DNA of 64,000 bases from Chiloscyllium plagiosum (lineage: Eukaryota). Within the stretch, counting starts at the first letter, position 1. Each line of letters starts with the position of its first letter. The notes beneath the pieces are model-generated. The model searched no databases. It was not told the DNA's origin and saw only the letters and a program-made list of their open reading frames with translations. Location of the stretch: NCBI RefSeq assembly GCF_004010195.1, contig NC_057727.1, positions 47,813,506-47,877,505 of the forward strand, written 5' to 3'. Below are positions 1 to 64,000 of this stretch, piece after piece. The translations under genes and the position numbers were made by a program.

Positions 1-3000
1 CTAGTGGAGAGAGCAGGAGTCAGTTCTGAACTAGTGGAGAGAGCAGGAGGCTGTATCTGAGATAGTGGAGAGATCAGGAGGCAGTTCTGAACTAGTGGAG
101 AGAGCAGGAGTCAATATCGGAGCTAGTGCAGTGAGCAGCAGACAGTATCTGAGCTCGTGGAGCGAGCAGGAGTGAGTATCTGAGTTAGTTGTGAGATCAG
201 GGGTCTGTATCGGAGATAGTGGAGAGAGCAGGATACAGTATCTGAGCTAGTGGAGAGAGCAGGAGGCAGGATCTGAGCTTGTGGAGAGAGCAGGAGGCGG
301 GATCTGAGTTAGTGGAGAGTGCAGGAGTCAGTATCTGAGTTAGTGGAGAGAGCAGGAAACAGGATCTGAGCTAGTGGAGAGAGCAGGAGGCAGGATCTGA
401 GTTAGTGGAGAGAGCAGGAGTCAGTATCTGAGCTAGTGGAGAGAGCAGGAGGCAGTATCTGAGCTTGTGGAGAGAGTCGGAGAGGGGATCTGAGCTAATG
501 GAGAGAGCAGGAGGCAGGATCTGAGTTAGTGGAGAGAGCAGGAGTCAGTATCTGAGCTCGTGGAGAGAGCAGGAGGCAGTATCTGAGCTAGCGGAGGGAG
601 CAGGAGGCTGTGTCTGTGTGAGTGGCGAGAGCAGGAGTCAGTATCTGAGCTATTGTCGAGAGCAGGACGCAGTATCTGAGCTTGTGAAGAGTGCAGGAGT
701 CAGTATCTGAGCTCATCGTGAGTAAAGGAGCCAGTATCTGCGCTAGTGGAGAGAGCACGAGTCATTATCTGCGCTTGTGGAGAGAGCAGGAGGCAGTATC
801 TGAATTAGTGGAGAGAGCAGGAGGCTGTATCTGAATTAGTGGAGAGAGCAGGAGGCAAGATCTGAGCTAGTGGAGAGAGCAGGAGTCAGTATCGGAGCTA
901 GTGGAGAAAGCAGGAGGCAGTGTCTGAGTTAGTGGAGAGAGCATGAGGTAGTATCTGAATTAGTGGAGAGAGCAGGAGGCAGTATCTGAGCTATTGTCGA
1001 GAGCAGGACGCCGTATCTGAGCTTGTGAAGAGTGCAGGAGTCAGTATCTGAGCTAGTCGTGAGTGAAGGAGCTATTATCTGCGCTAGTGTAGAGAGCAGG
1101 AGTCATTATCTGCGCTCGTGGAGAGAGCAGGAGGCAGTATCTAAGTTAGTGGAGAGAGCAGGAGGCTGTATCTGAATTAGTGGAGAGAGCAGGAGGCAAG
1201 ATCTGAGCTAGTGGAGAGTGCAGTAGGCAGTATCTGAATTAGTGGAGAGTGCAGGAGGCAGTACCTGAGTTAGTGGAGAGAGCAGGAGGCAGTGTCTGAG
1301 TTAGTGGAGAGAGCATGAGGTAGTATCTGAAGTAGTGGAGAGAGTAGGAGACAGTATCTGAGTTATTGGAGAGAGCAGGATGCTGGGTCTGAGTTAGTGG
1401 AGAGAGCATGAGGCAGTATCTGAGCTAGTGGAGAGAGCAGGAGGCAGGATCTGAGTTAGTGGAGAGGAAAGGAGTCAGTATCTGAGCTAGTGGAGAAGCA
1501 AGAGGCAGTTTCTGAGCTCGTGCAGTGAGCAGGAGACAGTATCTGAGCTAGTGAAGAGAGCAGGAGTCAGTATCTGAGTTAGTGGAGTGAACAAGAGTCA
1601 GTATCTGCGCTAGTGGAGAGAGCAGGAGGCAGTATTTCAGTTAGTGGAGAGCAGGAGGCTGTGTCTAAGCTCGTGTGAGAGCAGGAGTCAGTATCTGAGC
1701 TATTGTCGAAAGCAGGACGCAGTATCTGAGCTTGTGAAGAGTGCAGGAGTAAGTATCTGAGCTAGTCGTGAGTAAAGGAGCCAGCATCTGCGCTATTGGA
1801 GAGAGCAGGAGTCGTTATCTGCGCTAGTGGAGAGAGCAGGAGACAGTATCTGAATTAGTGGAGAGAGCAGGAGGCAAGATCTGAGCTCGTGGAGATAGCA
1901 GGAGGCAATATCTGAGTTCGTGGAGAGAGCGGGAGGTCGTGTCTGTGTTAGTGGAGAGAGCAGGAGGCAGTGTCTGAGCTAGAGGAGAGAGCTGGAGGCA
2001 GGATCTGAGTTATTGGAGAGTAATGGGGGCAGTATCTGAGCGAGTGGAGAGAGCAGGAGGCTGTGTCTAAGTTAGTGGAGAGAGCAGGAAGCAGTATCTG
2101 AGCTCGAGGAGTGAGCAGGAATCAGTATCTGCGCTAGTGGAGAGAGTAGGAGGAAGTTCTGAACTAGTGGAGAGAGTACGAGTCAGTATCGGAGCGAGTG
2201 GAGAGAGTAGGATGCAGTATCTGAGTTAGTGCAGAGAGCACGAGGCAGAATCTGAACTAGTGGAGGGAGCAGGAATCAGTATCTGAGCGAGTGGAGAGAC
2301 CAGGAAGCAGTATCTGAGTTAGTGGACAGAGCAGGAAGCAGTTCTGATCTAGTGGACAGAGCTGGAGTCAGTATCGGAGCTTGTGGAGAGAGCAGGAGGC
2401 AGTATCGGAGCTAGTGGAGAGAGCAGGAGGCAGTGTCTGAGTTAGTGGAGAGAGCAGGAGGCAGTGTCTGAGTTAGTGGACAGTAAAGGAGACAGTGTCT
2501 GATTTAGTGGAGAGAGCAGGAGGCAGTATCTGAGAGAGTGGAGAGATCAGGAGGCAGTTCTGAACTAGTGGAGAGCAGGAGTCAGTATCGGAGCTAGTGC
2601 AGAGAGCAGGAGTCAGTATCTGAGCTCGTGGAGTGAGCAGGAGTGAGTATCTGAGTTAGTGGAGAGAGCAGGAGTCTGTATCGGAGATAGTGGATAGAGC
2701 AGGAGACAGTATCTGAGCTAGTGGAGAGAGCAGGAGGCAGGATCTGAGCTTGTGGAGAGCAGGAGGCGGGATCTGAGTTAGTGGAGAGTGCAGGAGTCAG
2801 TATCTGAGTTTGTGCAGAGAGCAGGAGACAGTATCTGAGCTAATGGAGAGAGCATGAGGCAGGATCTGAGCTTGTGGAGAGAGCAGGAGGCAGGATCTGA
2901 GTTAGTGGAGAGAGCAGGAGGCAGTATCTGAGCTAATGGAGAAAGCAGGAGGCAGTATCTGAGCTAATGGAGAGAGCAGGAGGCAGTATCTGAGCGAGTG

Positions 3001-4820
3001 GAGAGAGCAGGAGGCCGTATCTGAGCGAGTGGAGAGAGCAGGAGGCAGTATCTGAGCGAGTGGAGAGAGCAGGAGGCAGGATCTGAGCGAGTGGAGAGAG
3101 AGCAGGAGGCTGTGTCTAAGCTCGTGTGAGAGCAGGAGTCAGTATCTGAGCTATTGTCGAGAGCAGGACGCAGTATCTGAGCTTGTGAAGAGTGCAGGAG
3201 TCAGTATCTGAGCTAGTCGTGAGTAAAGGAGCCAGTATCTGCGCTAGTGGAGAGAGCAGGAGTCGTTATCTGAGCGAGTGGAGAGAGCAGGAGGCTGTAT
3301 CTGAGCGAGTGGACAGAGCAGGAGGCAGTATCTGAGTTAGTGGAGGGAGCAGAAGTCAGTATCTGAGCTGGTGCAGAGAGCAGGAGGCAGTATCTGAGCT
3401 ATTAGAGAGTAAAGTTGTCAGTATCTGCGCTAGTGGAGAGAGCAGGAGTCAGTATCTGCGCTAGTGGTGAGAGCAGGAGGCTGTGTCTAAGCTCGTGTGA
3501 GAGCAGGAGTCAGTATCTGAGCTATTGTCGAGAGCAGGACGCAGTATCTGAGCTTGTGAAGAGTGCAGGAGTCAGTATCTGAGCTAGTCGTGAGTAAAGG
3601 AGCCAGTATCTGCGCTAGTGGAGAGAGCAGGAGTCGTTATCTGAGCGAGTGGAGAGAGCAGGAGGCAGTATCTGAGCGAGTGGAGAGAGTAGGAGGCTGT
3701 ATCTGAGCGAGTGGACAGAGCAGGAGGCAGGATCTGAGTTAGTGGAGGGAGCAGAAGTCAGTATCTGAGCTGGTGCAGAGAGCAGGAGACAGTATCTGAG
3801 CTATTAGAGAGTAAAGTTGTCAGTATCTGCGCTAGTGGAGAGAGCAGGAGTCAGTATCTGCGCTCGTGGAGAGAGGAGGAGTCAGTATCTGCGCTAGTGG
3901 AGAGAGGAGGAGGCAGTGTCAGAGCTAGTGCAGAAGCAGGAGGCAGTATCTGAGCTCGTGGAGAGTAGGAGGCAGGATCTGAGTTAGTGGAGAGAGCAGG
4001 AATCACTGTCTGAGCTAGTGGAGAGAGCAGGTGGCAGTATCTGAGCTAGAGGAGAGATCATGAGTCAGTATCTGAGCTAGTGGAGAGAGCAGGAGGCAGT
4101 AGCTGAGTTAGTGGAGGGAGCAGAAGTCAGTATCTGAACTCGTGGAGAGAGCAGGAGGCAGTACCTGAGCTAGTGGAGAGATCATGAGTCAGTATCGGAG
4201 CTAGTGGAGAGAGCAGGAGACAGTATCTGAGTTAGTGGAGAGAGCAGGAGTCAGTATCTGAACTAGTGGAGAGAACAGGAGTCAGTATCTGAGTTAGTGG
4301 AGAGAGCAGGAGGCCGTTTCTGAACTAGTGGAGTGTGCAAGAGTCAGTATCTGCGCTAGTGGAGAGAGCAGGAGGCATGATCCGAATTAGTGGAGAGTAA
4401 AGGAGGTTGTATCTCAACTAGTGGAGAGAGCAGGAGGCTGTGCCTGAGCTAGTGGAGAGAGCTGGAGGCTGTATCTGAGCTAGTGGAGAGAGCAGGAGGC
4501 AGTATCTGAACTAGTGGAGAGAGCAGGAGGCAGTAACTGATCTAGTGGAGAGAGTAGGAGGCAGTATCTGAGCTAGTGGAGAGAGAAGGAGGCAGTATCT
4601 GAACTAGTGGAGAGAACAGGAGTCAGTATCTGAGCTCGTGGAGATAATAGGAGACAGTATCTGAGTTAGTGGAGAGAGCAGGAGACAGGATCTGAACTAG
4701 TGCAGAGAGCAGGAGACAGTATCTGAGCTAGTGTCGAGAGCAGGAAGCAGCATCTGAGTTAGTGGATTGAGTAGGAGGCACGATCTGCGTTAGTGGAGGA
4801 TAAAGGAAGCAGTATCTGAG
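1..4820. repeat. 31-bp tandem satellite/minisatellite (consensus CTAGTGGAGAGAGCAGGAGGCAGTATCTGAG), runs off the left edge
   Basis: Continuous head-to-tail ~31-bp monomers with scattered variants and a strongly purine-rich + strand; decays into unique sequence near 4820. Confidence 0.98.
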
Positions 4821-5024
4821 TTTGTTGATATTGCATCCCATTTCTCTCCAGTCTAACATTTTTCCCTCCTTCAAAATTTTATCAGTTTGCAGAACATAAT
4901 ATAATAATGCGAAGATTAGTTTATTTTTCATCGGCGGAGCGTGTAGTAAAAGAATTATTGGTAACACATCGACAAGTAGTCCAGGGGAAATGGACCGATG
5001 TTTTCAATGTTTCAAATTCTGCTG

Positions 5025-5058
5025 TATGTGTGTGTCTGTGTGTGTGTGTGTGAGAGAG
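5025..5058. repeat. (GT)n(GA)n microsatellite
   Basis: Directly visible. Confidence 0.9.
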
Positions 5059-6605
5059 AAATGGACCTAAAAATGATTGTTCAGGTAACGTATGGGCAAT
5101 TTAGATTTGCAATGTATGTATTAACTGTGTAGCATGGTTAAAATGTTGTGTGAAAAGTGTATCACCATCATAAAATAAAGCAAAACAAAGTGCATTGCTT
5201 TCATTTCATGAAACCGACAGGAAATAGCACTCTTTCGTTCAGAGATTAATGGAACCACATTTAAAAAGAGTAAAAAGCAGCCAAGAATTGCCAATAGAGC
5301 TCAGAGCACCTATTATCTTTCTGTGCAAACTCGTGCGTTCATGCATTGACTTCCCTTTCCCTGCCTAGCCTCATGTGTTTCTTGAACTAGATGTAGAAAT
5401 TTCATTTTGAAGACAAGGCTTAATGTTTTTGATCTATCTTAAACCCACTGCTCAACATAACAAATCGGCCAGAGGTAGAAGAAATCTTAAAATTCATGCA
5501 ATAAGATAATGCTTTTTAGATATAGTTAACCTTTCTAATATCATTTACCAATAGACTTATTTTTACATTGTAATTTTACTTGTGATTAAAACTTCCAGTA
5601 ACTCAAATAAATAAAGTTTTTTTATGTTTTAGTAGTTGTGATAAATATTTCCTTCAAGAAATTCAACAATTATAATTTAAGTTATTCTCGGTTGTATTCA
5701 GGAAATTATTGTTTATACTACAGTTGCATATCCATTTTCATTGCCTTCATTCATGAAAATTCAGAGTACAACAAACAAGTGCACCCGCTATAATAAACAG
5801 TGGAAGTCTGGAATCTTTTTAACATGTTCAAATTTCATTCTCAGTCTTGCAAAAGAAAGTGACGTTTGATTCTTTTAAATCCAAACTACTTGCTTACAAT
5901 AATTGCTTATACTTGATAGCATACACCTGGTTCAAAACACGCATATCAAATAGTCACAAAGAAATGATTAATGGATTAGATTTGAATGGATTATCCATTC
6001 AATGGCATATAATGTACATTGCTACCCTGAGAAGTTTCAAATCCCTATAATTTTGAATGTATGCCATGCACTTAATCTCTCTTTAATAGTGAGATGGTTG
6101 AACTAGGAAGAAATGTAGTAATGAACAATCCTAATTATGTATTAGGCATTTACATTATATTTATATCGATGAATGAAACTGCTATTGGAACTCCTTGATT
6201 TCTTTAGGTGAAGTCTAAAATTAAATTGCACAAACAGTAAGACATTGTTAGATGTATAACTGACTTTAGGTTTGAATAAATAACTTGCGTGGTCTCTGTG
6301 AAACAAAATGTTAATAAGCAACAAGCCATTCAAGGTGAATTTGCAAACTGCCTGTTTCAGGTTTTGTTTTTTTGGATGGTAAAGTTAGTAATAGCTTCAA
6401 TAGTCAGTTGCATTACATAACATAAGTACTATTTTCTGATTGCCATATTTTTACTGAATTTCATTGTTGCTTGATTTGAAAACCTAAAACTAATTATCAT
6501 TTAATTTGGCTTATTTTCATGCATATTGCCGGGTGGATTGTCTGTGAATATTTAATGACTTAATCAACGTACAAAACAGAGTTCAGACACATTTTCCATT
6601 CTAAG

Positions 6606-6687
6606 CCATTGACCAGGAAGGAGCTGCTTTGTGTGTTTGTAGTAGACATTGTAATGTAGGTAGGTTGATGCTGTTGGAAAATCTAGG
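6606..6687 (+). CDS. Candidate small internal exon (AIDQEGAALCVCSRHCNVGRLMLLENLG), host gene unidentified
   Basis: ttttccattctaag acceptor, GG|gtaagt consensus donor, open frame, phase 1 to 2; no recognised homology. Confidence 0.25.
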
Positions 6688-7489
6688 GTAAGTGAACTTC
6701 TAGTAAAAATAATGCTTAGTTTTTGACACATTTAATTGTCATGACATAGTACAATGTGGATGGAAAGAGGTGGAGATAAAGATAATTTAACATGGCATAA
6801 ATTTAAGAAATTGACTTCATAGAATAAGGTCACCTTCACTGCCCTTGTAAGGTCACTAATTCTTTTTACAACATTGAATCCAGATTTGTCGAATGGTTAA
6901 ATTAGTTGAATAAAAAATTCTTTGAGAATAGGAAATATGTAAGATTTAAAGTCTGCAAAAATTCAAATTCCAAACCTTTCTTTTTTGACTCGGAGGATAA
7001 AATTCAATTTGGCCTAAGTGAGGAAGTTGAGAGATGGGAGGGATCTGTAGAATCAGAGAGAGGAAGTAGGGTCTGCCAGTGCCTTAAAGATATTGCACTA
7101 TTATCTCAGGGACGTGGAAGATTTAGGACATTGTTCCTGCGGAGAGGTCAGTTGAGGCCTTTATGTGGCCAATTAAGGGACGTTAGTGGGCCTCTTTCTA
7201 TCACTGTTGGTGCAGTGGAACATTTTGCTAAGTGGAAGAGTATAAAATAAAAACCAACCCCTTTGTCTGTTGAAGGCTAACTTTTATGAGTTGGGTACCA
7301 TGTGGTGCAGGGAGAATTCTACCTATTGCATGACCAGCTAGTATGGAAACACACCTTTTTCTTCACCAATAACAACAACTGCCATCCTGTCAGGGCTTAC
7401 CTTGCTGGCCTCAATGACCTGGATCACAACTACCTACCTCTCCATATTATTGCTTCAGCCTGGATGCAGTCCCAGCAGTGGACAGTGCT

Positions 7490-7810
7490 GCCTGTGTCTA
7501 TCTCAACTTTAAATACAATTAATGACCCAGCCTCTAGCTCGATCTGCCTTAAAGAGTTTTATAGGTTCAGTACCCTCTGAGAGAAGAAATTTCTTCTCAA
7601 CTCTGTCTTAAATTGGTGACACCTTATTCTGAGATTATACCCCTCTGGTCTGAGATTCTCCTACAAGTGAGAGCAACTTTTCCACATCAACCCTGACAAG
7701 CCCAGCCAGAATCTTAAGTAATTCACTAACATAATCTACTCAACCTCTCCTCAGAGAGAAAAATAAATCCCCCCATATCTTAGATTGCCCTAGTGAACTT
7801 TCTTTGGTGC
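7490..7810 (-). mobile_element. CR1 LINE 3' ORF2 fragment, old
   Basis: accctctgagagaagaaatttcttctc is the antisense of the CR1 C-terminal RRNFFSQRV motif. Confidence 0.8.
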
Positions 7811-8619
7811 CAGCCCTCTTGTTGACTTTTGAACTTGGCATATTTTCCCCAAAGATGAATGATGGCCTCAATGTCAGACCATTTAATTGTCTGAAGGCCA
7901 CAAAATAGCTTCAGGACTCCCAGAAATGATGAAGGTTATGCTACTCCTGGATTTTCAGCTTGCTGTCAGGACTCCTTCCTGCTTACTTCACACACAGCCC
8001 TGAGAACATCCCAACTCCTGTTTCATTAATGCAGCTCTTGAAATTTAGTTGTAATAGTTGTGCTAGAGGTGAGGGCCTGCCTTTGGGATGGAAGGAAACT
8101 AAATCTACAGGTCAATGTTGCAATGTGCATGGAAAGAGATGAAAACAAGTGCGATTACATGGTCTGCTCATCACAAAGACTGGAATTGATGCCACAAAAT
8201 ATTTAACAACCTGGCCAGCCATGTTAGCATTACCCAATATAAAGTCAACTTCTTAAGTACTTGTGCAAGTAGAATTTTCTCATCTCCTATTACCTCTACC
8301 CCTCCCTTGTGCCCACACATGTCCTATTTCACAGTATGAAATTGTGCTCACAATTGTTCTCTAACAAAGATAAAAGGATTTATCTTAGTCTTTGTTCTTT
8401 TAAGTCTGTTAAAAATGAAAAAAAATGTTAGAGTGTGCATAGTCAACCTTAATGAATACGTCAATTCCAAAAGCTTCATGTTACTGCTTAGGGTTTTGTT
8501 TCTTTAAAATGATTATTTTAAACATGAGGGTATAGCTAGAAAAATGTATAGTTATATAAGCATAGTAATTTTAATTTAACTTTGTTCAATTAGAACATCT
8601 GCTGTAATATGAAACTCTT

Positions 8620-8708
8620 CGATGCAGAAACAGTTGCTGACTGACTTGTTGAGCATGTCCAATATGTTCTGTTTTTATTTCAGATTTCCAGTATTTTGCT
8701 TTTGTATT
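8620..8708 (+). mobile_element. Penelope-like 3' tail fragment, decayed, no ribozyme core
   Basis: tgctgactgacttgttgagc...ttctgtttttatttcagatttccag matches the tails at 12660, 36021 and 59905. Confidence 0.6.
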
Positions 8709-10084
8709 AGTGTTGTTTAGATGTATCTGTTGGCTTTATCTGGGGGCAATGGTGGATGTTTGATATCTAGGAAGTCCTTTTTGCCCTTTCAGGGATTAAA
8801 AAAAACACTGATTCTGACTTAATCAGGGGAGGCATTTTCTGAGAAAAAGATTATGTGAAGGCAGTGATAATTCAAATTGACCTTCTAAGGAACTATTCAA
8901 ATTACATAGGCTTCTAAAGTGGCAAGAAGATCAAAGAAAATTAATGCTAGTATTAAATATTACTGAAAAGGTTTCTTTTTACCAGATGACAAGGGATGAA
9001 CCCCTTGGTTGACAGCAGCAAAGATTTATGTTCTTTTTGCACACAGCTTTACCTCACTCCAGTTAGAATGGAGGGGGTGCTCCTCATCCTTCTAGAGCAC
9101 CCTTAACAAGATAACACATTCCCACTTCTCCCCCACTGTTTTAAGCACCTTAAAAAAAAGTAATGAATCCTGCTCTTCTCAAACAGCATTGAACCTACAA
9201 TGAAATTACTTAGCCTTATATCGTCTTGTGAAATTACAAACACTTTTCTTTCCTGCAACTTCAGGCTGTTCTTTGTTTCAAAATTTAGAGACAGAAGATT
9301 GAAATGACTTTACAAATTGACAATTCAACACATCTTATTCACTCTTTATGCTAATTTGTGTTGCATCAATAATCTCGAAAACATCCCATGACCTCTGTCA
9401 AATGGGTACTCCAAGTGTCAACACTTGTAAGTGCTCCTTTAAGAGTATTCATTCAAAACATATATTTCCCTGTAATGCAATATCTTGGTCCATGGTAACT
9501 TGAGAATTAATGTATGGCTTCCTGACAATTCAATTCTGTTACCTGTTGTTACCTGAGAGAAAATATCAGGCAAATTTCCTTTCTTTAGTCTCCTACAATA
9601 GACTGTATTTGCTAGTATTTAATATTAATTGGATAATTTGTAACAAATATGCACTCCTTTAAGGTGCAGAAACTTCACAAAACTGTTCCAAACATGGCTA
9701 ACAAGGGGAGTTAAATGCAGTGTTCGATCAAAGGAAAAAACTTATGTTGTCAAATAGAGCAGTAAGTCAGAGGTTTGGTAGTAATTTGGGATTCAATCCA
9801 GGAGCAAGAAATGAATAAGGAAAGATAGAAGAGCTAGAGACAGGCAAAATCATAATGGACAACAAGGAAATGGAAGAGATATTAGATAAATACTTTTTGA
9901 TTCTCATACTGGGAAGACTTCCGGTATTTTTATTCCTTGCCAATGATGGTCCGAACAATCAGTATCCTCTTCTCATGCTGTACAAATGATGTTTCTTCAG
10001 TCAAGTCTACATCCTGGTTCTGATGAGTTCATGATGAAAATCTTCCACTTGTTGTCTCCTTTTAGCAGTATTTAAGGTACATAC

Positions 10085-28887: not shown

Positions 28888-29014
28888 GATTAGGAGATGC
28901 CGGTATTGGACTGGGGTGTACAAAGTTAAAAATCACACAACACCAGGTTATAGTCCAACAACTTTAATTGGAAGCACACTAGCTTTCGGAGTGACGCTCC
29001 TTCATCAGGTGGTT
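28888..29014 (-). mobile_element. Short Penelope-type terminal insert (distinct subfamily)
   Basis: ~125-bp segment in unique DNA; begins with a hammerhead core. Confidence 0.7.
28977..29011 (-). ncRNA. Minimal type I hammerhead ribozyme, intact core
   Basis: cac CUGAUGA a GGAG cguca CUCC GAAA GC UA gug: conserved core, 4-bp stem II, AGCU palindromic stem III, CAC/GUG stem I. Confidence 0.8.
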
Positions 29015-35940: not shown

Positions 35941-36177
35941 GATACTGAGGAAGAGTCACTGGGACCAGAAACATTAACACTGGGTTGGAGTAAGGACATG
36001 GGAGAGTTCGAGCCCTAAAGTTTCCTAGCTACCATCAGTTCTAAGGAAGGGTCACCACACCCAAAACATTAACTCTGATTTCTCTCCATAGATGTTGTCA
36101 GACCTGCTGAGCTTTTCCAGTAATTTCTGTTTGTGTTTCTGATTTCCAGCATCGGCAGTTTTTTTGGTTTTTATTTT
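35941..36177 (+). mobile_element. Penelope-derived unit with two tandem decayed hammerhead cores
   Basis: ctgaggaagagtcactgggaccagaaacattaac (35945) and ctaaggaagggtcaccacacccaaaacattaac (36041), then the PLE tail. Confidence 0.75.
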
Positions 36178-39429: not shown

Positions 39430-39953
39430 ATGAACAAGAACAGAAATTGCTGCAAAAGCTTAGCAGGTCTGGCAGCATCTGTGGAGAGAAATCAGAGTTA
39501 GCATTTTGGGTCAAGTGACCCTTCATCAGAATTGATGGTGGCCTGGAAGATATTGGTTTATATGCAGAAAATAGTGTGGAAGCGGGTAAGGAATAAATGG
39601 GATAGAGAGAGAGAGAGAGAGAGAGGAATGGTTGGACAGAGAGAGGAATGGTTGGACAGACAAAGATAATGATCTGGCTACAAGGGTGAATAGTTATTTA
39701 TGGGGTCTGTCAGAAGCTAACAATGGGTTGTGTGTAATAGCCAACTATGTAATAACAAGGCCTATTGTGCGGGCCTGAGGTAAGGACATGGAAGAACTCA
39801 AGCATTAAGGTTTCCTTGCTACCATCAGTTCTGAGGAAAACTCACTTGACCAACAATGTTAATTCTGATTTCTCTCCACAGATGCTGCCAGACTTGCTGA
39901 GCTTTTCCAGTAGTTTCCATTTTTGTTTTTGAACTGCAATTCTTTTGGTTTTT
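39430..39953. mobile_element. Inverted pair of Penelope 3' ends (minus arm 39430-39810, plus arm 39811-39953)
   Basis: The arms are reverse complements over ~110 bp; each has a decayed hammerhead core. Confidence 0.85.
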
Positions 39954-49810: not shown

Positions 49811-52220
49811 AATTGTAAACAGGTTAGTTGTTTTGTGTATATCTTGTTAAACTGTTGCAGTTTTAAAAACAAAGAATATTTTTGAATAAATAATCATAAT
49901 TTAGGTGATGTTATACTGTATTCCTTTTAAGTAGTGATTAATAGACACTTTTTCTAGAATTCAACCTGCTAACTACAATAAGGTTACTATTTATTCTTGA
50001 GAATGAGCTGGCAGCTCATGATCTTGCAGCTGAGTTCCTGCTTAGCTCATTTATGAATTGATCTTTATTTTCCAATGTTTGAGTTGTCACAGTTGTAAAT
50101 TTTGTATCACGTCCTCATGACTAAACCTCCCATTCAATGATTTTGGTGCACTCAGACTAATTTCATGGGAAAATCATTACTTCAATTGCTTAGTCAAATC
50201 ACTTTTGTTTGTTAAATGGAAATAGATCGCTATTCAATAGTGTACAATGCACTTTGAAAGCTGTACTGTAAATCTCTTTTTTTAAACTGTATTAATTTTT
50301 CTTGCTTTTGAGTCTTCAACTATTTACCATCACAATTAAGGATAGTTAGATAAAATATATCAGACTCCTGCCAGAACCAAGTACAGGGAAGCATTTATAA
50401 CAGTGAGGGATCACTCGTCAACTGGGATCTTTGAACACAATCCACAACCACAGGCCCCTTTAAAATAGGTGGATTTTTATACTGATCAAAGGGCTGCAAG
50501 GATGGCATAGCGAGAATGGAATCCTTTTTTGATAACCTGAACCTCCCCAGAATAAATGCAGAGCAGGCCTCCCTTTTAAATGCATCCCTGATGATAGAAG
50601 AGGTGCAGGAGGTGAAGCACCCGGTCCAGACGGGTTCCCGAGTGAGTTTTACAAGGCGTTTATGCACATGTTAGCTGAACCACTTCTGGAGATGTATGGT
50701 CATTTGTATAACCAGGACTGCCTGCCACCATCCCTTTGGGAAGCCAATATCACCCAAAAGGGAAAGACCCCGAGGATTGCACGTCATATAGACCTATCTA
50801 GTTGTTGAATGTAGTTTTCAAAATTTTAACAAAAGTCCTGGCCCTGAGGCTGGAAAAGATACTGCCTGTTATGATAAAAGAAAACCAGATGTGTTTTATG
50901 TGTTTTATCATCCATAATATCAGGAGGGTACTGAATATAGTATATGTATGTCAGCAGAGATTGATTCTGTGCTTGGAGGTATCCTTGGATGCAGAAAAGG
51001 TGTTTGATCAGGTGGAATGGTCGTATCTCCTTGATGTTCTAGATCGGTTTAGCTTTGGAGGGGCCTTCGCTTGGTGGGTGGCAGTGATATATAGAGACCC
51101 CAAGGCGGCAGTTATCACGAACGGCAGCCGACAGGAGTGGCCTCTCTCACTGCTGCTATTACTTTGGTAATTGAGCCGCTGGTAGATGCCATCCAGCGGG
51201 ACCCTGAAATAGTGGCACCAAAATTACTCTTTATGCAGACGATGTCTTTCTGTTTCTTGCTAATCTGGAAAAGTCCCCAGCAAACACAAAAAGTTAAATT
51301 ATTCGGCAGTTTCTTGGGATGCAGGATAAATTTCAACAAGTCGGAATTCATGCCTGTGGGAGGATTAATGGAACTGCCTGAGTTGGAGGATAGAATGCAG
51401 TTTCCTTTTTGGTAGTCACAAGAAGGTTTTCTCTACCTGGGAATGTTTATTACCCCTGTCTTCCATCAGCTATATGCAGCTAACTTTGTGCAACTGTTGG
51501 ATAGGATAAAGCAGGACATGCAGCAGTGGGAGGGGCTACCAATAATGTGGTAGGCCATATAGCCCTGATTAAAATGCATGTTCTTTCTCGGTTATTATAC
51601 CCTATGAGGATGTTCCTGTTGTTGCTACCCAGATAGGTGCTGTGGTGCTTTACCGGTTGGCTTGGTCATTTATTTGGCACTGAAGGCACCCCGAATTAAG
51701 TTTATTAAGCTGCATCTCCTGCAGGGTATGGGGGGGAAGTGGGTGGGGTCATGGATCTTATAGATCACAAGAGATGCCAAATAGATGTCCTGTTGTCATA
51801 TGTGGGTGGCTGGGTGTGTAAGGACTTGAGGTCGATGCAGCTTGATGCTGCCTCGCAGGCAAGGTGTCCCCTTGTTAATTTATTGTTTATGGACAAAATG
51901 TGATCTGTGGCTGTGAGAGGCCAATTATCTTCAATATGGTGAAAGCTTGGAGGATAATGCAGCAGGGTGAGGGCAACTTACTTAAGACTTCGCCATTCAC
52001 CCCATTAGTGGGACTCTCAGGATTTAGGCCGGGGTCAATAGACTCCAGCTTTCGAGTATGGAAGGGTAAAGGAATCTCCTGTCTGGGAGATTTATTTGAG
52101 GGAGAGATCTTTATGTCTTTTAACCAGTTAAGTCAGAAATATGGGTTACCTTATAGGGAACTCTTTTGATATTTTTAGGTTAAGGATTATATACAGAAGA
52201 AGACCATGCTCTTTGCTCAG

Positions 52221-52316
52221 AGCTGAAAAATGTGTTGCTGGAAAAGCACAACAGGTCAGGCAGCATCCAAGGAGCAGGAGAATCGACGTTTCGGGCATAA
52301 GCCCTTCTTCAGGAAT
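52221..52316 (-). mobile_element. 96-bp Penelope-tail insert with 16-bp TSD inside the L1
   Basis: Flanks catgctctttgctcag (52205-52220) / catgttcttggctcag (52317-52332). Confidence 0.88.
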
Positions 52317-52317
52317 C
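52281..52317 (-). ncRNA. Minimal type I hammerhead ribozyme, intact core
   Basis: gauuc CUGAAGA a GGGC uuau GCCC GAAA CG UC gauu: core intact, ACGU palindromic stem III, GUC cleavage triplet. Confidence 0.82.
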
Positions 52318-53499
52318 ATGTTCTTGGCTCAGCCCTACAAGTCAGATATAGAGAGCAGAGTGCTCCGATGTGGGGGTATTCCCTTGGTCAGTACCATATA
52401 TTACCTGCAGAGAGGGAGTGCCTTGGGGGATATGGAGAAACTCCATGGGATCTGGTATCAGGAATTGGGGGAAGAAATCTCATTAGAAACATAGGAAGAT
52501 CTATGGGCGAATGTAAAGAAAATTTCAAAATGAAATAAAGCACAAACAATGCAATTAAAGATCCTTCACAGATCCCATATGGCACCAGGGAGGTTAGCAA
52601 AGTTTAAGAAAGGTTCCTCTCCAGAATGTCCCAAATGTAAAATTAGCAAGCGCACCCTTATACATTGCTTTTAGAGCTGCTATTAAGATTCACTGATAGA
52701 GGGGTGCCATAGTGAATGAGTTGGGAAGGATCCTGGGAATTGAAGTTAAGGCGGACCTGGTATCCCTTCTTTTGGGACTGCCGAATCTGCTCTCTCTGGG
52801 TGAACATGGGAAGAGGTTATTTTACATTCGTACACACTGTACCAGGAAGAACATTCTAATGAACTGGATATCAGAAAATCCTCCAGGTCTTGCAGGGTGG
52901 CGCAGACTTGTGATAGAGCACATCCCCCCGAGACTATCTTACAAATATGGTGCACCATAGAACAGGGCAATTTTATAAGATGTGGGGGGCTCTTTCTAAA
53001 TTACATAGACACAGACCTATTGATTAGGGCCTTTAGACAGTTGTGAGGGTCAGGTTTGGCAGTCCGGGTCGCCAAGGAGGGGAAGCTTGGTAAATACGGG
53101 TATAATAAATGTTGGTCCCGTGGACAGGAGCCTCAGTGGAGGTGCAGCGAGTGGAGCAATGTAATATAATCTAATTTAATTTAATTGTAATTTAATTTAA
53201 TTTCATTTTATTTAATTTGTTCTTAATTTAACTTGAGTTAAGTTAAGTAAGTATGAGACAATGGTACCCTGTAGGTTATTATTGTTAATACTATTGTAAT
53301 AGAATAATGTCGTATTATCGCTATTCTTCTGTACCTTTGTATTTTTATAATTCTTTTGTAAAAGAGTAAAACTTCTTTTTTATTAAAAAAAAAAGTGGCT
53401 TTGGCTCTAAGAATGCAATTAGCTACCTTAACCTAAAGCTTAAGAGGAAAATCCTGGCTGGACCAGACACCTGGCCAATGGTGCACTGTGGCTGATGTT

Positions 53500-59127: not shown

Positions 59128-59904
59128 CCAGAATCTGGTTTCCAGCATCTGCAGTCATTGTTTTTACCCTGAACCCAGATCCGTATCTCCAGCTTAATCA
59201 ACACCTTTCTGGAAGTTTCAAATACATTGCATGAAAGACTTACCTGTAGATTATCCAACTACAAAACAAAATGAAGCCAGGCATGGGAATATTCAAATTA
59301 ACTCAGGCAATGATTTTTGGGTGAGCAAAAGGAAGGATGATGGATTTGTATCAATAGAAATGCAGATTGTCTTCGACTCCCTGATTGTTTCCCTTCGCCT
59401 TTCAAAAGAAAACAGTATTTTATGATGAAGTTATTCACAGAGAATTCAAAGATAACGACATATATTCACTAAGGTGAGGAAACAAGTTATCAATTAAATA
59501 GTCTTGAACATGAACTAACAACTCAAAGATCCTAAGGACTTTTTAAATGGCAAACTCTTGATCTTTTTTGTACTAGACTTTCTACTTCTTAAAATTTTAG
59601 ACCTGGTGTGACATGTCACATTTAATTGTTTTTCTTGGGGTCAATAAGCAATAAAATTCCTTCATCCATCATACAAGAAAATCTTTCGATTGACTCCTTA
59701 ATTTTGAACTAGTGAATATATTTGCTTTGAATTGTGATATAGCTGTGTGCTTAAAAGAACTTGAAAATCTTTGATGCAGTCAGCCATGAGGATTAAAAAT
59801 TTGGGATCCCGATTCATCTCTTCGCATCTGGTCACACAATAACATTAGAAATACAAAATATTTTTTAAAAGCATAGAAGTTGTAAGCGTTTATATTCAGA
59901 GACA

Positions 59905-60036
59905 GTTCTTCATTCTGATGAAGGGTCACTTGACTTGAAGTGTTAATTCTGTTCTCTCTCTCCACAGAAGCTGCTGACTTTCTCTAGCACTTTGTTTTTG
60001 AGATCTCAAGCATCTGCAGTTCTTTGTTTTATTTTG
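59905..60036 (+). mobile_element. Penelope-tail insert with decayed hammerhead core
   Basis: ctgatgaagggtcacttgacttgaagtgttaa followed by the PLE tail. Confidence 0.8.
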
Positions 60037-60786: not shown

Positions 60787-63700
60787 CCTGGGGAAGGTGG
60801 GACCTCTACAAACAGGATGGTCTTCACCTGAACTAGAGGGGTACCAATATCCCCGGGGGGAAAATCTGCTAATGCTCTTTGGAGTGGGGGGAGGGGATTT
60901 AAACTAATGCTGCATGGGGATGGGAACCTGAATTGTAGTTCTAGTGTACAGGAAGTTGAGGGTAGTGAGGTCAGGGATAGGTTTACAAGGTTGCGAGAGG
61001 ACACTGGCAATCAGGGTGTTAGTTTGAAATGTGTGCACTTCAATGCCAGGAGCATCCGGAATAAGGTGGGTGAACTTGCAGCATGGGTTGGTACCTGGGA
61101 TTTTGATGTTGTGGCCATTTCGGAGACATGGCTAGAGGAGGGGCAGGAATGGTTGTTACAGATTCCGGGATTTAGATGTTTCAGAGAAAATGGTAAAAGT
61201 TTGTAGCAGGCGGTGGCACTGTTAACCAAGGGTAGTATTACAGCAGCTGAGATAACATGTGAGGACTCACCCACTGACGCAGTTTGGGCTGATGTTAGAA
61301 ACAGGAAAGGAGAGGTCACCCTGTTGGGAGTTTTCTATAGGCCTCCGAATTGTTCCAGGGATGTAGAGGAAAGGATAGCAAAGATAATTCTCAATAGGAT
61401 CGAGAGTAACAGGGTAGTTGTTATGGGGGACTTTAATTTTACTAATATTGACTGGGAATACTGTGGTTCAAGTACTTTTAGATGGATCAGTTATTATTCA
61501 ATGTAAGCAGGAGGGTTTTCTGACACAGTACGTAGACAGGCCAACAAGGGGCGATGCCATATTGGATTTGGTACTGGGGAATGAACCCAGCCAGGTGTTC
61601 GACTTGGAGGTAGGTGAGTATTTTGGCAATAGTGACCATAATTCGGTTATGTTTACAATAGCAATGGGCAGGAATAGGTATACATTGCAGAGAAAAAGGT
61701 ATAACTGGGGTAAAGGCAATTATGATGTGATTTGGCAAGGTTTAGGATGCATGGGATGGGGAAAGAAACTGCAGGGGATGGACACACTTGAAATATGGAG
61801 CATATTCAAGGAACAGCTACTGTGGGTCCTTGATAAGTATATACCTATCAGGCAGGGAAGTAGATTTTGAGAGAGGGAGCCATGGTTTACTAAAGAAGTT
61901 GAAGCTTTTATCAGGAGGAAAAAGACTTATGTGAAGATGAGGTGTGAAGGCTCAGATAGGGGGCTGAAGAGTTACAAGTTAGCCAGAAAAGATCTAAAGA
62001 GAGGGCTAAGAAGAGCCAGGAGGGGACAAGTGAAGTTGTTGGTGGATAGGATCAAGGAAAACCCTCAGGCCTTCTAACGGTAAATCAGGAATAAAAGAAT
62101 GACTAGAGTAAGATTACGGCCAATCAAAGATAGTAGTGGAAAGTTGTATGTGGAATCTAAGGATATAGGGGAAACACTTAATGAATATTTTTTGTCAGTA
62201 TTCACATTGGAAAAGGGCAATGTTAGAGAGAATACGGAGATACAGGCTACTAGATTAGATGGGATTAAGGTTGATAATGAGGAGGTTTTAGCAATTTTGG
62301 AAGATCTGAAAATAAATAAGATCCCTGGGCCGGATAGGATTAATCTTGGGATTCTCTGGGAAGCCAGGGAAGAGATTGCAGACCCTTTGGCTTTGATCTT
62401 TATGTCATCATTGTCGATAGGAGTAGTGTCAGAAGCCTGGAGTATAGCAAATGTTGTTCCCTTGTTTAAGAAGGGGAGTCGAGACAATTATAGGCCAGTG
62501 AGACTTACTTTGGTTGTGGGTAAGGTGTTGGAAAAAGTTATAAGAGATTGGATTTATAATCATCTGGAAAGGAATAATTTGATTAGAGATAGTCAACACT
62601 GTTTTGTGAAATGTAAATCGTGCCTTGCTAACCTTATTGAGTTCTTCAAGAAGGTAACAAAACAGGTGGCTGAAGGTAAAGCAGTTGATGTAGTCTATAT
62701 GGACTTCGGTAAGGCGTTTGATAAGCTTCAACACGGTAGGCTATTGCACAAGATATAGAGTTTCAGGATTAAAGATGATTTAGCGGTTTGGATCAAAAAT
62801 TGGCTAGCTGAAAGAGGACAGAGGATGGTGGTTGATAGGAAATGTTCATCCTGAAGCTCAGTTACCACTGGTGTGCCGCAAGGACCTAGCTCCTCCTCCT
62901 CCTGCTCCTCGGATGCTGTCTGACCTGATGTGCTTTTCCAGCACCACTCTAATCTTGACTCTGATCTCCAGCATTTGCAGTCTTCACCTTTGCCCTGCTG
63001 CAAGGATCTGTTTTAGGGCCACTGCTGTCTGTCATTTTTATAAATGATCTGGCTGTGGGCTTGGAAGGATGGGTTAGTAAATTTGTGGGTGACACTGAGG
63101 CAGATTTGTGGAGAGTGCTCAGGGATGTTGTGGGTTACAGAGGGTCATAGATAAGATACATAGCTGGGCAGAGAAGTGGCAAATAGAGTTGAATGCGGAA
63201 AAGTGTGAGGTAGTTCACTTCAGAAGATATAACAGGAATGCAGAGTACTGGGTTAATGATAAAATTCTTGGCAGTGTAGATGAACAGAGAGATCTTGGTG
63301 TCCAGGTGCAAATCCCTGAAAGTTGCTGCCCAGGTTGATAGGGACATATCAACTTAATCGAGACATATAAGATAATCAAGGGGTTAGATAGGGTGGACAG
63401 TGAGAGCATAAGAAGGCATACGGTGTGTTGGCATTTATTGGGAGGGGCATTGTGTTTTAGAGCCACGAGGTCATGCTCCAGCTGTACAAGGCACTGGTAA
63501 GGCCACACTGGAGTACTGCTTACAGTTCTGGTCACTACGTTATAGGAGAGATGTGGAAGCTTTGGAAAGGGTTCAGAGGAGATTTACTAGTATGTTGCCA
63601 GGTACGGAAGGAAGGTCTTACGAGGAAAGACTGAGGGAACTGAGGCTGTTTTTGTTGGAGAGAAGAAGGTTGAGAGGTGACTTAATCGAGACATATAAGA

Positions 63701-63881
63701 TAATCAAGGGGTTAGATAAGGTGGACAGTGAGAGCCTTTTACCTCAGATGGTGAAGGCTAACACAATGGACACAATTTTCAATTGAGGGGTGATAGATTT
63801 AGGACAGATATCAGGGGTAGTTTCTTTACTCAGAGGTGTGGGATGGCCTGCCTGCAGCAGTAGTAGGCTCACCTACATTAA
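60787..63881 (+). mobile_element. Near-full-length CR1 (HER1-like): end of ORF1 esterase plus ORF2 APE endonuclease and RT, with stops and frameshifts
   Basis: ORF1 WDLYKQDGLHLN; EN NARSIRNK, VVAISETWL, GVFYRPPN, MGDFN, PTRGDAILDLVL, SDHN; RT PGPD, NYRPVRLT, VDVVYMDFGKAFDK, VRPHWSTA, RLRGDLIETYKI. Confidence 0.96.
62885..62995 (+). mobile_element. 111-bp Penelope-tail insert (no ribozyme core) with 11-bp TSD inside CR1
   Basis: Flanks tgccgcaagga (62874-62884) / tgctgcaagga (62996-63006). Confidence 0.85.
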
Positions 63882-63883
63882 GG

Positions 63884-64000
63884 AGGAGAAAGTGAGGACT
63901 GCAGATGCTGGAGATCAGAGCTGAAAAATGTGTTGCTGGAAAAGCGCAGCAGGTCAGGCAGAACCCAAGGAGCAGGAGATGATTCCTGAAGAAGGGCTTA
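63884..64000. mobile_element. Inverted Penelope tails: minus arm to ~63979, then a plus arm starting with a hammerhead core (cut by the window end)
   Basis: Minus arm nearly identical to 52218-52280; gattcctgaagaagggctta at 63981-64000 is the reverse complement of 52298-52317. Confidence 0.88.

Follow-up and report, generated by a model that had tools for sequence, protein, structure and literature searches.

How does a hammerhead ribozyme motif come to lie inside a LINE, and did the ribozyme itself have any part in bringing it there? The question is raised by 96 bp at 52221-52316 of the window, by which we mean the whole 64,000-nucleotide stretch of Chiloscyllium plagiosum DNA that was analysed. 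The original prediction regarded this segment as a minimal ribozyme unit, mobile in its own right. We are highly confident that it is the end-piece of a Penelope-like element, itself non-coding, and we consider it probable, from comparison of sequences, that it is a dead 96-base pseudo-LTR end copied from about the first 100 bases of a capped RNA that would start with ATTCC.

An insertion younger than its host

The insert lies on the minus strand between two 16-bp copies of its target, CATGCTCTTTGCTCAG at 52205-52220 and CATGTTCTTGGCTCAG at 52317-52332 (both on the plus strand), and by sequence comparison it corresponds to positions +1 to +96 of the terminal unit of a pseudo-LTR of the tail-less class. 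Microhomology leaves both boundaries ambiguous. Four bases (CTGA) are shared at the 3' junction of the element, the last four of the left target copy (52217-52220) also matching the element's +97 to +100 at its priming end, and the insert's 3' end is +96, or +100 if these bases common to element and target are counted. At the 5' junction a single G is shared: 52317 is the G at -1 on the minus strand, which at this insert may be a target base, a copied cap or both.

A search of the shark's own genome with the right flank gave 40 scored places, from which 29 paralogues of the host LINE (L062-L090) were compared. In all 29 the 16-mer occurs once and the insert is absent, and in L068 an open frame of 278 amino acids runs across the empty site. 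Given this absence from 29 of 29 paralogues, the insertion is real, and the original view of a 96-bp insert with its own 16-bp duplication, arising by an independent retrotransposition, is borne out with its coordinates. The same paralogues mostly read ACG or ACA where the host copy has ATG; CpG decay created the target CATG.

The host is a decayed LINE reading frame on the plus strand, spanning approximately 51000-53050, with a YADD motif near 51220 and a C-terminal CCHC motif near 52620-52680. From these two motifs in the translation we tentatively label it an L1; a Pfam search with the C-terminal frames of two of its paralogues returned no families. The insert had been described as interrupting the L1 frame. 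It does lie inside the LINE, but that frame was already broken, with many stops on both sides of the insert.

The insert is younger than this host. Relative to the family majority it has 2 changes in 100 positions, a CpG transition at +69 and a second transition at +66, besides one subfamily site, whereas the host LINE differs from the column majority of its paralogues at 61 of 453 (13.5%) and 53 of 467 (11.3%) columns. It is not among the youngest copies: each copy of its duplication is one base off the paralogue-type site (2/32; 95% interval 0.8-21%), and the neighbouring insertion at 63868 has a perfect 16-bp duplication. 'Fairly recent', as first claimed, is thus apt relative to the host and not within the family, and since both counts are small and their intervals overlap, it cannot be dated more closely. 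A contig of run X2 equals 52293-52613 without differences, but with only 24 insert-side bases against a bar of 31; in runs X9 and X11 (organisms B and C) the family is abundant, and no piece was assignable to the orthologous site.

The parent element

Long copies of the family carry a GIY-YIG C-terminus upstream of the unit. At one locus (L289), a frame of 561 amino acids matches RVT_1 (E 1.4e-8, above the cut-off) and GIY-YIG (E 5e-4, just below the cut-off), and the unit, 93% identical to the insert, begins 155 bases after the end of this ORF. Since a reverse transcriptase and GIY-YIG frame adjoins so similar a unit, we identify the insert as the last piece of a Penelope-like pseudo-LTR. Several features by which such elements are recognised were found in the family: a parent ORF with reverse transcriptase and C-terminal GIY-YIG, a hammerhead in the pseudo-LTR, an optional tail, inverted arms and duplications of variable length.

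Before the endonuclease stands a CX4CX2C linker (CNRKKCKTC in L010, CKCKRCKTC in L289), which is of the Neptune/Nematis type, unlike that of the PAc Poseidon element (PMC11167929). Neptune and Nematis elements also have a C-terminal GIY-YIG with two cysteines between GIY and YIG, a CX2-5CxxC linker, inverted 5'-truncated copies and an optional tail (PMC8557442), a likeness in features that would make the family a candidate member of these clades. Those elements carry an ORF, whereas the insert at 52221-52316 has no coding part. That minimal hammerheads are dispersed by truncated Penelope-like elements, with tails and inverted arms, is already in print.

The search of 29 loci gave no case of a pseudo-LTR lying upstream of an ORF and joined to its start, and no link of the promoter to a coding RNA was seen there; L312 has one same-strand motif, but unrelated DNA follows it. 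Nor did a tandem arrangement of pseudo-LTR, ORF and pseudo-LTR occur in these 29 loci or in 6 long stretches, several of them with long N runs; the longest 'open frames' in the search for a whole element were mostly such runs.

A hammerhead predicted not to cut alone

The minus strand of the insert holds every conserved hammerhead core base and the GUC triplet, and the original description of a perfect core was correct. The element's first four bases, ATTC (52313-52316), form the 5' strand of a weak stem I and begin at +1, the putative transcription start, which in long copies stands in the initiator-like context TC-A-TTCC. There follow the core CUGAAGA (C3-A9; 52306-52312), an unpaired A at 52305 (an architecture as in PMC4209133), a 4-bp stem II, GGGC-UUAU-GCCC (52293-52304), present in both the MFE and the centroid fold, and GAAA-C-GUC (52285-52292), which, from its sequence and the dimer model of PMC4209133, comprises core G12-A15.1, ACGU in place of helix III, and the triplet. 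The predicted cut falls between 52285 and 52284 (= +32), and GAUU (52281-52284) provides the 3' strand of stem I, with two pairs, a U.U mismatch and one pair. Identical stem I arms occur in 204 motif matches, representing the two commonest variants across loci (not de-duplicated). In a motif scan of the window the insert is the only match of its type, the copy at 63982 running off the window's end.

The motif is not the 'one intact hammerhead' that it was first taken to be. Helix III is impossible in one molecule because A15.1 and U16.1 are only two bases apart; the ACGU is self-complementary, which is the dimer design of minimal hammerheads. Rfam at the gathering threshold gave no matches in the window, and the MFE fold of the insert is no better than that of shuffled sequences (z -0.29), with stem I not formed as the ribozyme needs. 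A dimer with only stem II and the ACGU helix has -18.9 kcal/mol versus -29.9 kcal/mol for the best dimer, and folding therefore does not favour the active form. We rejected a canonical monomeric type I hammerhead on the absence of any possible helix III, the Rfam result and the fold.

What the segment 52285-52312 does display is a conserved core, no helix III, a palindrome at 15.1-16.1 and an unpaired base after A9. The minimal hammerheads of metazoan Penelope-like elements likewise lack helix III and have palindromic 15-16 positions, an unpaired base between 9 and 10.1 and a G10.1-C11.1 pair, and they too are mostly single dispersed motifs from truncated elements (PMC4209133). The stems here are shorter, with 4 bp in stem II and 2+1 bp in stem I compared with 7-8 and 4-5 bp in Schistosoma, and at least 32,254 near-identical copies contrast with about 4,000-9,000 motifs in coelacanth and Xenopus (PMC4209133). 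Of a Schistosoma motif, a single copy gave no cleavage and dimers gave little (PMC4209133).

On these grounds of sequence and folding, the insert's motif is predicted not to cut when alone. It would be a passenger in the insert, cutting only as a dimer or with protein help. It had been put forward as the best candidate for biochemical testing; given that this class, devoid of helix III, was inactive as a monomer (PMC4209133), we consider it a poor one. Nor is it special. In a sample of 120 copies, chosen by their start and stem II, 86 keep GAAACGTC and 83 keep all three core CpGs, and these 83 have an equal core. The statement that the insert keeps its CpGs holds for three of the family's four, the fourth having been lost by the transition at +69.

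In organism C (run X11), three contigs show the 34-base ribozyme core duplicated head to tail, with 52316 running straight back into 52283, and L210 has a similar tandem. Such natural core dimers would be better assay candidates than single copies.

Copy number and 3' ends

The family is very large. An exact 37-mer from the insert has 12,442 genomic matches (reversed control, 0), and the sequence from the ATTCC start through stem II is kept exactly in at least 32,254 copies, counted with a pattern that also excludes G at -8; 13,669 copies keep the upstream CCTC of long copies.

Ends were mapped in 95 arms from the first 90 listed places of the 37-mer, a sample selected by the core and blind to both ends. 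The 3' ends fall into two classes about 35 bases apart, with 49 arms ending at +128 to +131, 41 at +84 to +105 and 5 elsewhere, according to whether an optional tail is present or absent. The insert, ending at +96 to +100, is tail-less; the stretch after its ribozyme, which the original prediction called a tail, is not the Penelope 'tail'. Inverted copies are common (44 of 70 G-headed copies and 22 of 50 others) and duplications measure 7-20 bp; the insert is of the simple type. In the Poseidon element of Anolis, an optional tail of 30-40 bp was traced to two internal start sites of reverse transcription (PMC11167929), and the PAc Poseidon resembles our family in having, downstream of the hammerhead, 3' ends of two classes with a spacing of about 35 bases. 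Priming in PAc proceeded without target homology (PMC11167929), whereas 4 bases of microhomology are present at the insert.

In L289 (866-875) and in many copies of the long class (e.g. L050 and L060), the tail ends with CTCAC followed by a pyrimidine run, several with TAG. This arrangement resembles, in sequence, a branch point and a 3' splice site. Introns near the RNA start are known in Penelope-like elements.

5' ends and an extra G

The 5' ends of the same arms, two of which abut gaps, are most often at +1 (14 of 93, about 15%). A further 44 lie at +2 to +21 and one at +22; upstream, 13 lie within 5 bases and 21 further away, 8 of these between -8 and -59 and 13 running on for 88 bases or more. 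The predicted enrichment at this position is confirmed as a mode and not as a fixed start. Ends frequent downstream of +1 and sparse upstream of it are as expected if many templates begin at +1. The predicted cut is 32 bases downstream of this start; the insert's end is therefore not a product of ribozyme cleavage, which speaks, together with the insert's identity as a pseudo-LTR end, against a ribozyme unit moving in its own right. Our counting patterns took in only copies that hold the core for 10 bases or more ahead of the cut, and copies starting at +33 fall outside the counts.

The base before ATTCC is C in the parent. Among the copies in which it differs, 5,967 have G and 3,816 have A or T, a G share of 61% versus the 25% expected from composition. 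At a control junction one base downstream (+2), matched by 7,764 copies, 15 of the first 100 listed have G as the flanking base, judged by eye. Inversion joins with C or T as the microhomology predominate in this control and depress its share of G; the two counts also differ in the base left out, A in the control and C at +1. In a sister family, 13 G and 7 A were read by eye at -1 among 100 listed copies (p 0.024). The core-selected sample, with G at 9 of 14 ends at +1 versus 15 of 44 at +2 to +21 (p 0.064), is only suggestive. Among 49 bystander copies, a set enriched in long copies, -1 holds only 4 G, 1 A and 1 T.

We inspected 70 G-headed copies, namely the first 30 in the list and 40 of those that follow. 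Inversion joins account for 44 of them, a duplication is present in 17 and could not be found in 8, and one is a long copy with a point change. Since only this last is a mutated long copy, there is no G-bearing master. Of the 17 copies with a duplication, 8 (two of them near-duplicates of each other) include the G in the duplicated sequence, 4 have it as a single extra base and in 5 it ends a longer filler. Of 50 copies headed by A or T, 6 have a duplication and one has a single extra base.

An extra G derived from the cap has been described at full-length L1 insertions (PMC11702581). The likeness is that the extra G appears where the copy reaches the 5' end of the RNA; L1 is a different class of retroelement, and the 'full-length' product here would be only about 100-131 bases. 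Our literature searches on a cap or extra G in Penelope-like elements and on shark hammerheads, made outside subscription papers and supplements, brought up nothing on such a G, and the available text on the PAc Poseidon does not treat capped 5' ends or an extra G (PMC11167929). The G at -1 of the insert fits a cap model without proving it, because it is also the last base of the duplication.

A model for the origin of the insert and its alternatives

Based on these observations, we believe that the ATTCC start, often with its extra G, is likely to be where the capped RNA of the element begins, the sequence context pointing to a Pol II initiator. The +1 A sits in TC-A-TTCC, which fits the initiator consensus YYANWYY, and in L289 an AT-rich patch lies at -32 to -25. 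A promoter and start within the pseudo-LTR have precedents in Penelope of Drosophila virilis (PMC2377424) and in rotifer pseudo-LTRs, where an initiator-like TCACT is present (PMC3846280); in D. virilis the start was mapped, 46 bp before an intron (PMC2377424), whereas here it is deduced from insertion ends.

In our proposal, the pseudo-LTR promoter would direct Pol II to initiate on the A within TC-A-TTCC, leaving four bases ahead of the hammerhead core. The element's protein would nick the target, and reverse transcription would begin inside the RNA at about +96 or +131, helped at the present insert by the 4 bases of microhomology. It would then proceed through the uncut ribozyme to the cap, often adding a C opposite it, and the duplication would arise as the cDNA end, with an inverted arm in some copies and without one in others, is attached at the far side of the staggered cut. 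Uncut RNA was likewise the template in the PAc Poseidon (PMC11167929). As priming would be internal, the thousands of truncated copies that bear the promoter could themselves be sources, which would explain the copy number.

An alternative that we think rather improbable, but which deserves attention, accepts the same element and route and explains the +1 peak as a hot spot of stalling or template switching on read-through RNA, the G being a non-templated or repair base. The reverse transcriptase would dissociate once past stem II, or where a protein is bound, and the 44 of 93 arms that end around stem II, the prevalence of inversion joins among G-headed copies (44/70) and the 13,669 long copies that read through +1 are all in keeping with this. 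The sharp drop of ends upstream of +1 (8 between -8 and -59) and the specificity of the G to the +1 junction are not, and they agree with a capped start at +1, as do its initiator-like context and the AT-rich patch of L289.

Two further explanations seem to us very unlikely. The insert could be an autonomous minimal ribozyme unit, its ends set by self-cleavage, that moved as a retrozyme monomer; the core and GUC are intact, and monomeric retrozyme derivatives exist in vertebrates (10.64898/2026.07.22.740005). A monomer made by cleavage would, however, run from +33 to the GUC and not from +1 to +96, the site holds a single unit and no tandem array, monomers of this class, without helix III, are inactive (PMC4209133), and in Poseidon catalytic mutants left insertion unchanged (PMC11167929). 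A non-LTR retrozyme was rejected likewise, with no head-to-tail units and with ends at +1 and +96 that do not coincide with the cut at +32. The other explanation, now largely refuted, is a short SINE-like subfamily whose 5' end would be fixed at (C)ATG-ATTCC by descent from one master gene. It was suggested by the two copies in the window, since the insert, as originally noted, shares its ATTCC start with the arm at 63981 (63982 by our coordinates) and ATG precedes both, and by the CATG in most of the best BLAST matches, a set selected by a query that itself included CATG. Copies headed exactly by CATG number only 187, against the 5,967 headed by G (the latter counted with a pattern 3 bases shorter at its 3' end), CATG is found in 0 of the first 30 core-selected matches, and at 30 CATG loci the CAT is supplied by the inverted arm or by the target. 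The fixed CATG start was thus an artefact of the choice of query.

We therefore prefer copying from a capped RNA. The insertion itself is ordinary; what it adds is a signature across the family, with thousands of copies ending at one base with a G foreign to the parent. If the G is a copied cap, the start site of the element's RNA has been obtained without recourse to transcript data, uncut capped RNA would be the template in vivo, matching the in vitro result in the anole (PMC11167929), and a testable role would follow for the ribozyme in Penelope-like elements. We put that role forward tentatively, as a possibility that could well prove wrong: the insertion ends would record the start to the base, a cut at +32 would strip the RNA of its cap together with a leader of 32 bases, as an off-switch or a step of maturation, and internal priming on RNA left uncut would yield cap-to-tail copies of about 100-131 bases. 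The first four bases of the RNA would then form stem I of the ribozyme, and every promoter-bearing pseudo-LTR would be a source of such copies in their thousands.

Other features of the window

A fold-back insertion of the same family on the plus strand occupies 63868-64000 and continues beyond the window in L091 (368-545), which has a perfect second copy of the duplication. Within the window it comprises the first 16-bp copy (63868-63883), an inverted arm with a tail (63884-63979) and, from 63982, a direct arm with G at -1, in which an internal deletion has brought the end of the short unit directly against the first base beyond the ribozyme.

At 28982-29008 the minus strand carries a second type of minimal hammerhead, whose stem II is longer and which has AGCU as its palindrome and another triplet. 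Fragments of older or sister pseudo-LTR ends lie at 62899-62990, 36084-36159, 39447-39479, 39881-39910, 59134-59156 and 60002-60023. The first part of the window (1-4820) is a 31-bp satellite of 156 copies with a strong purine skew.
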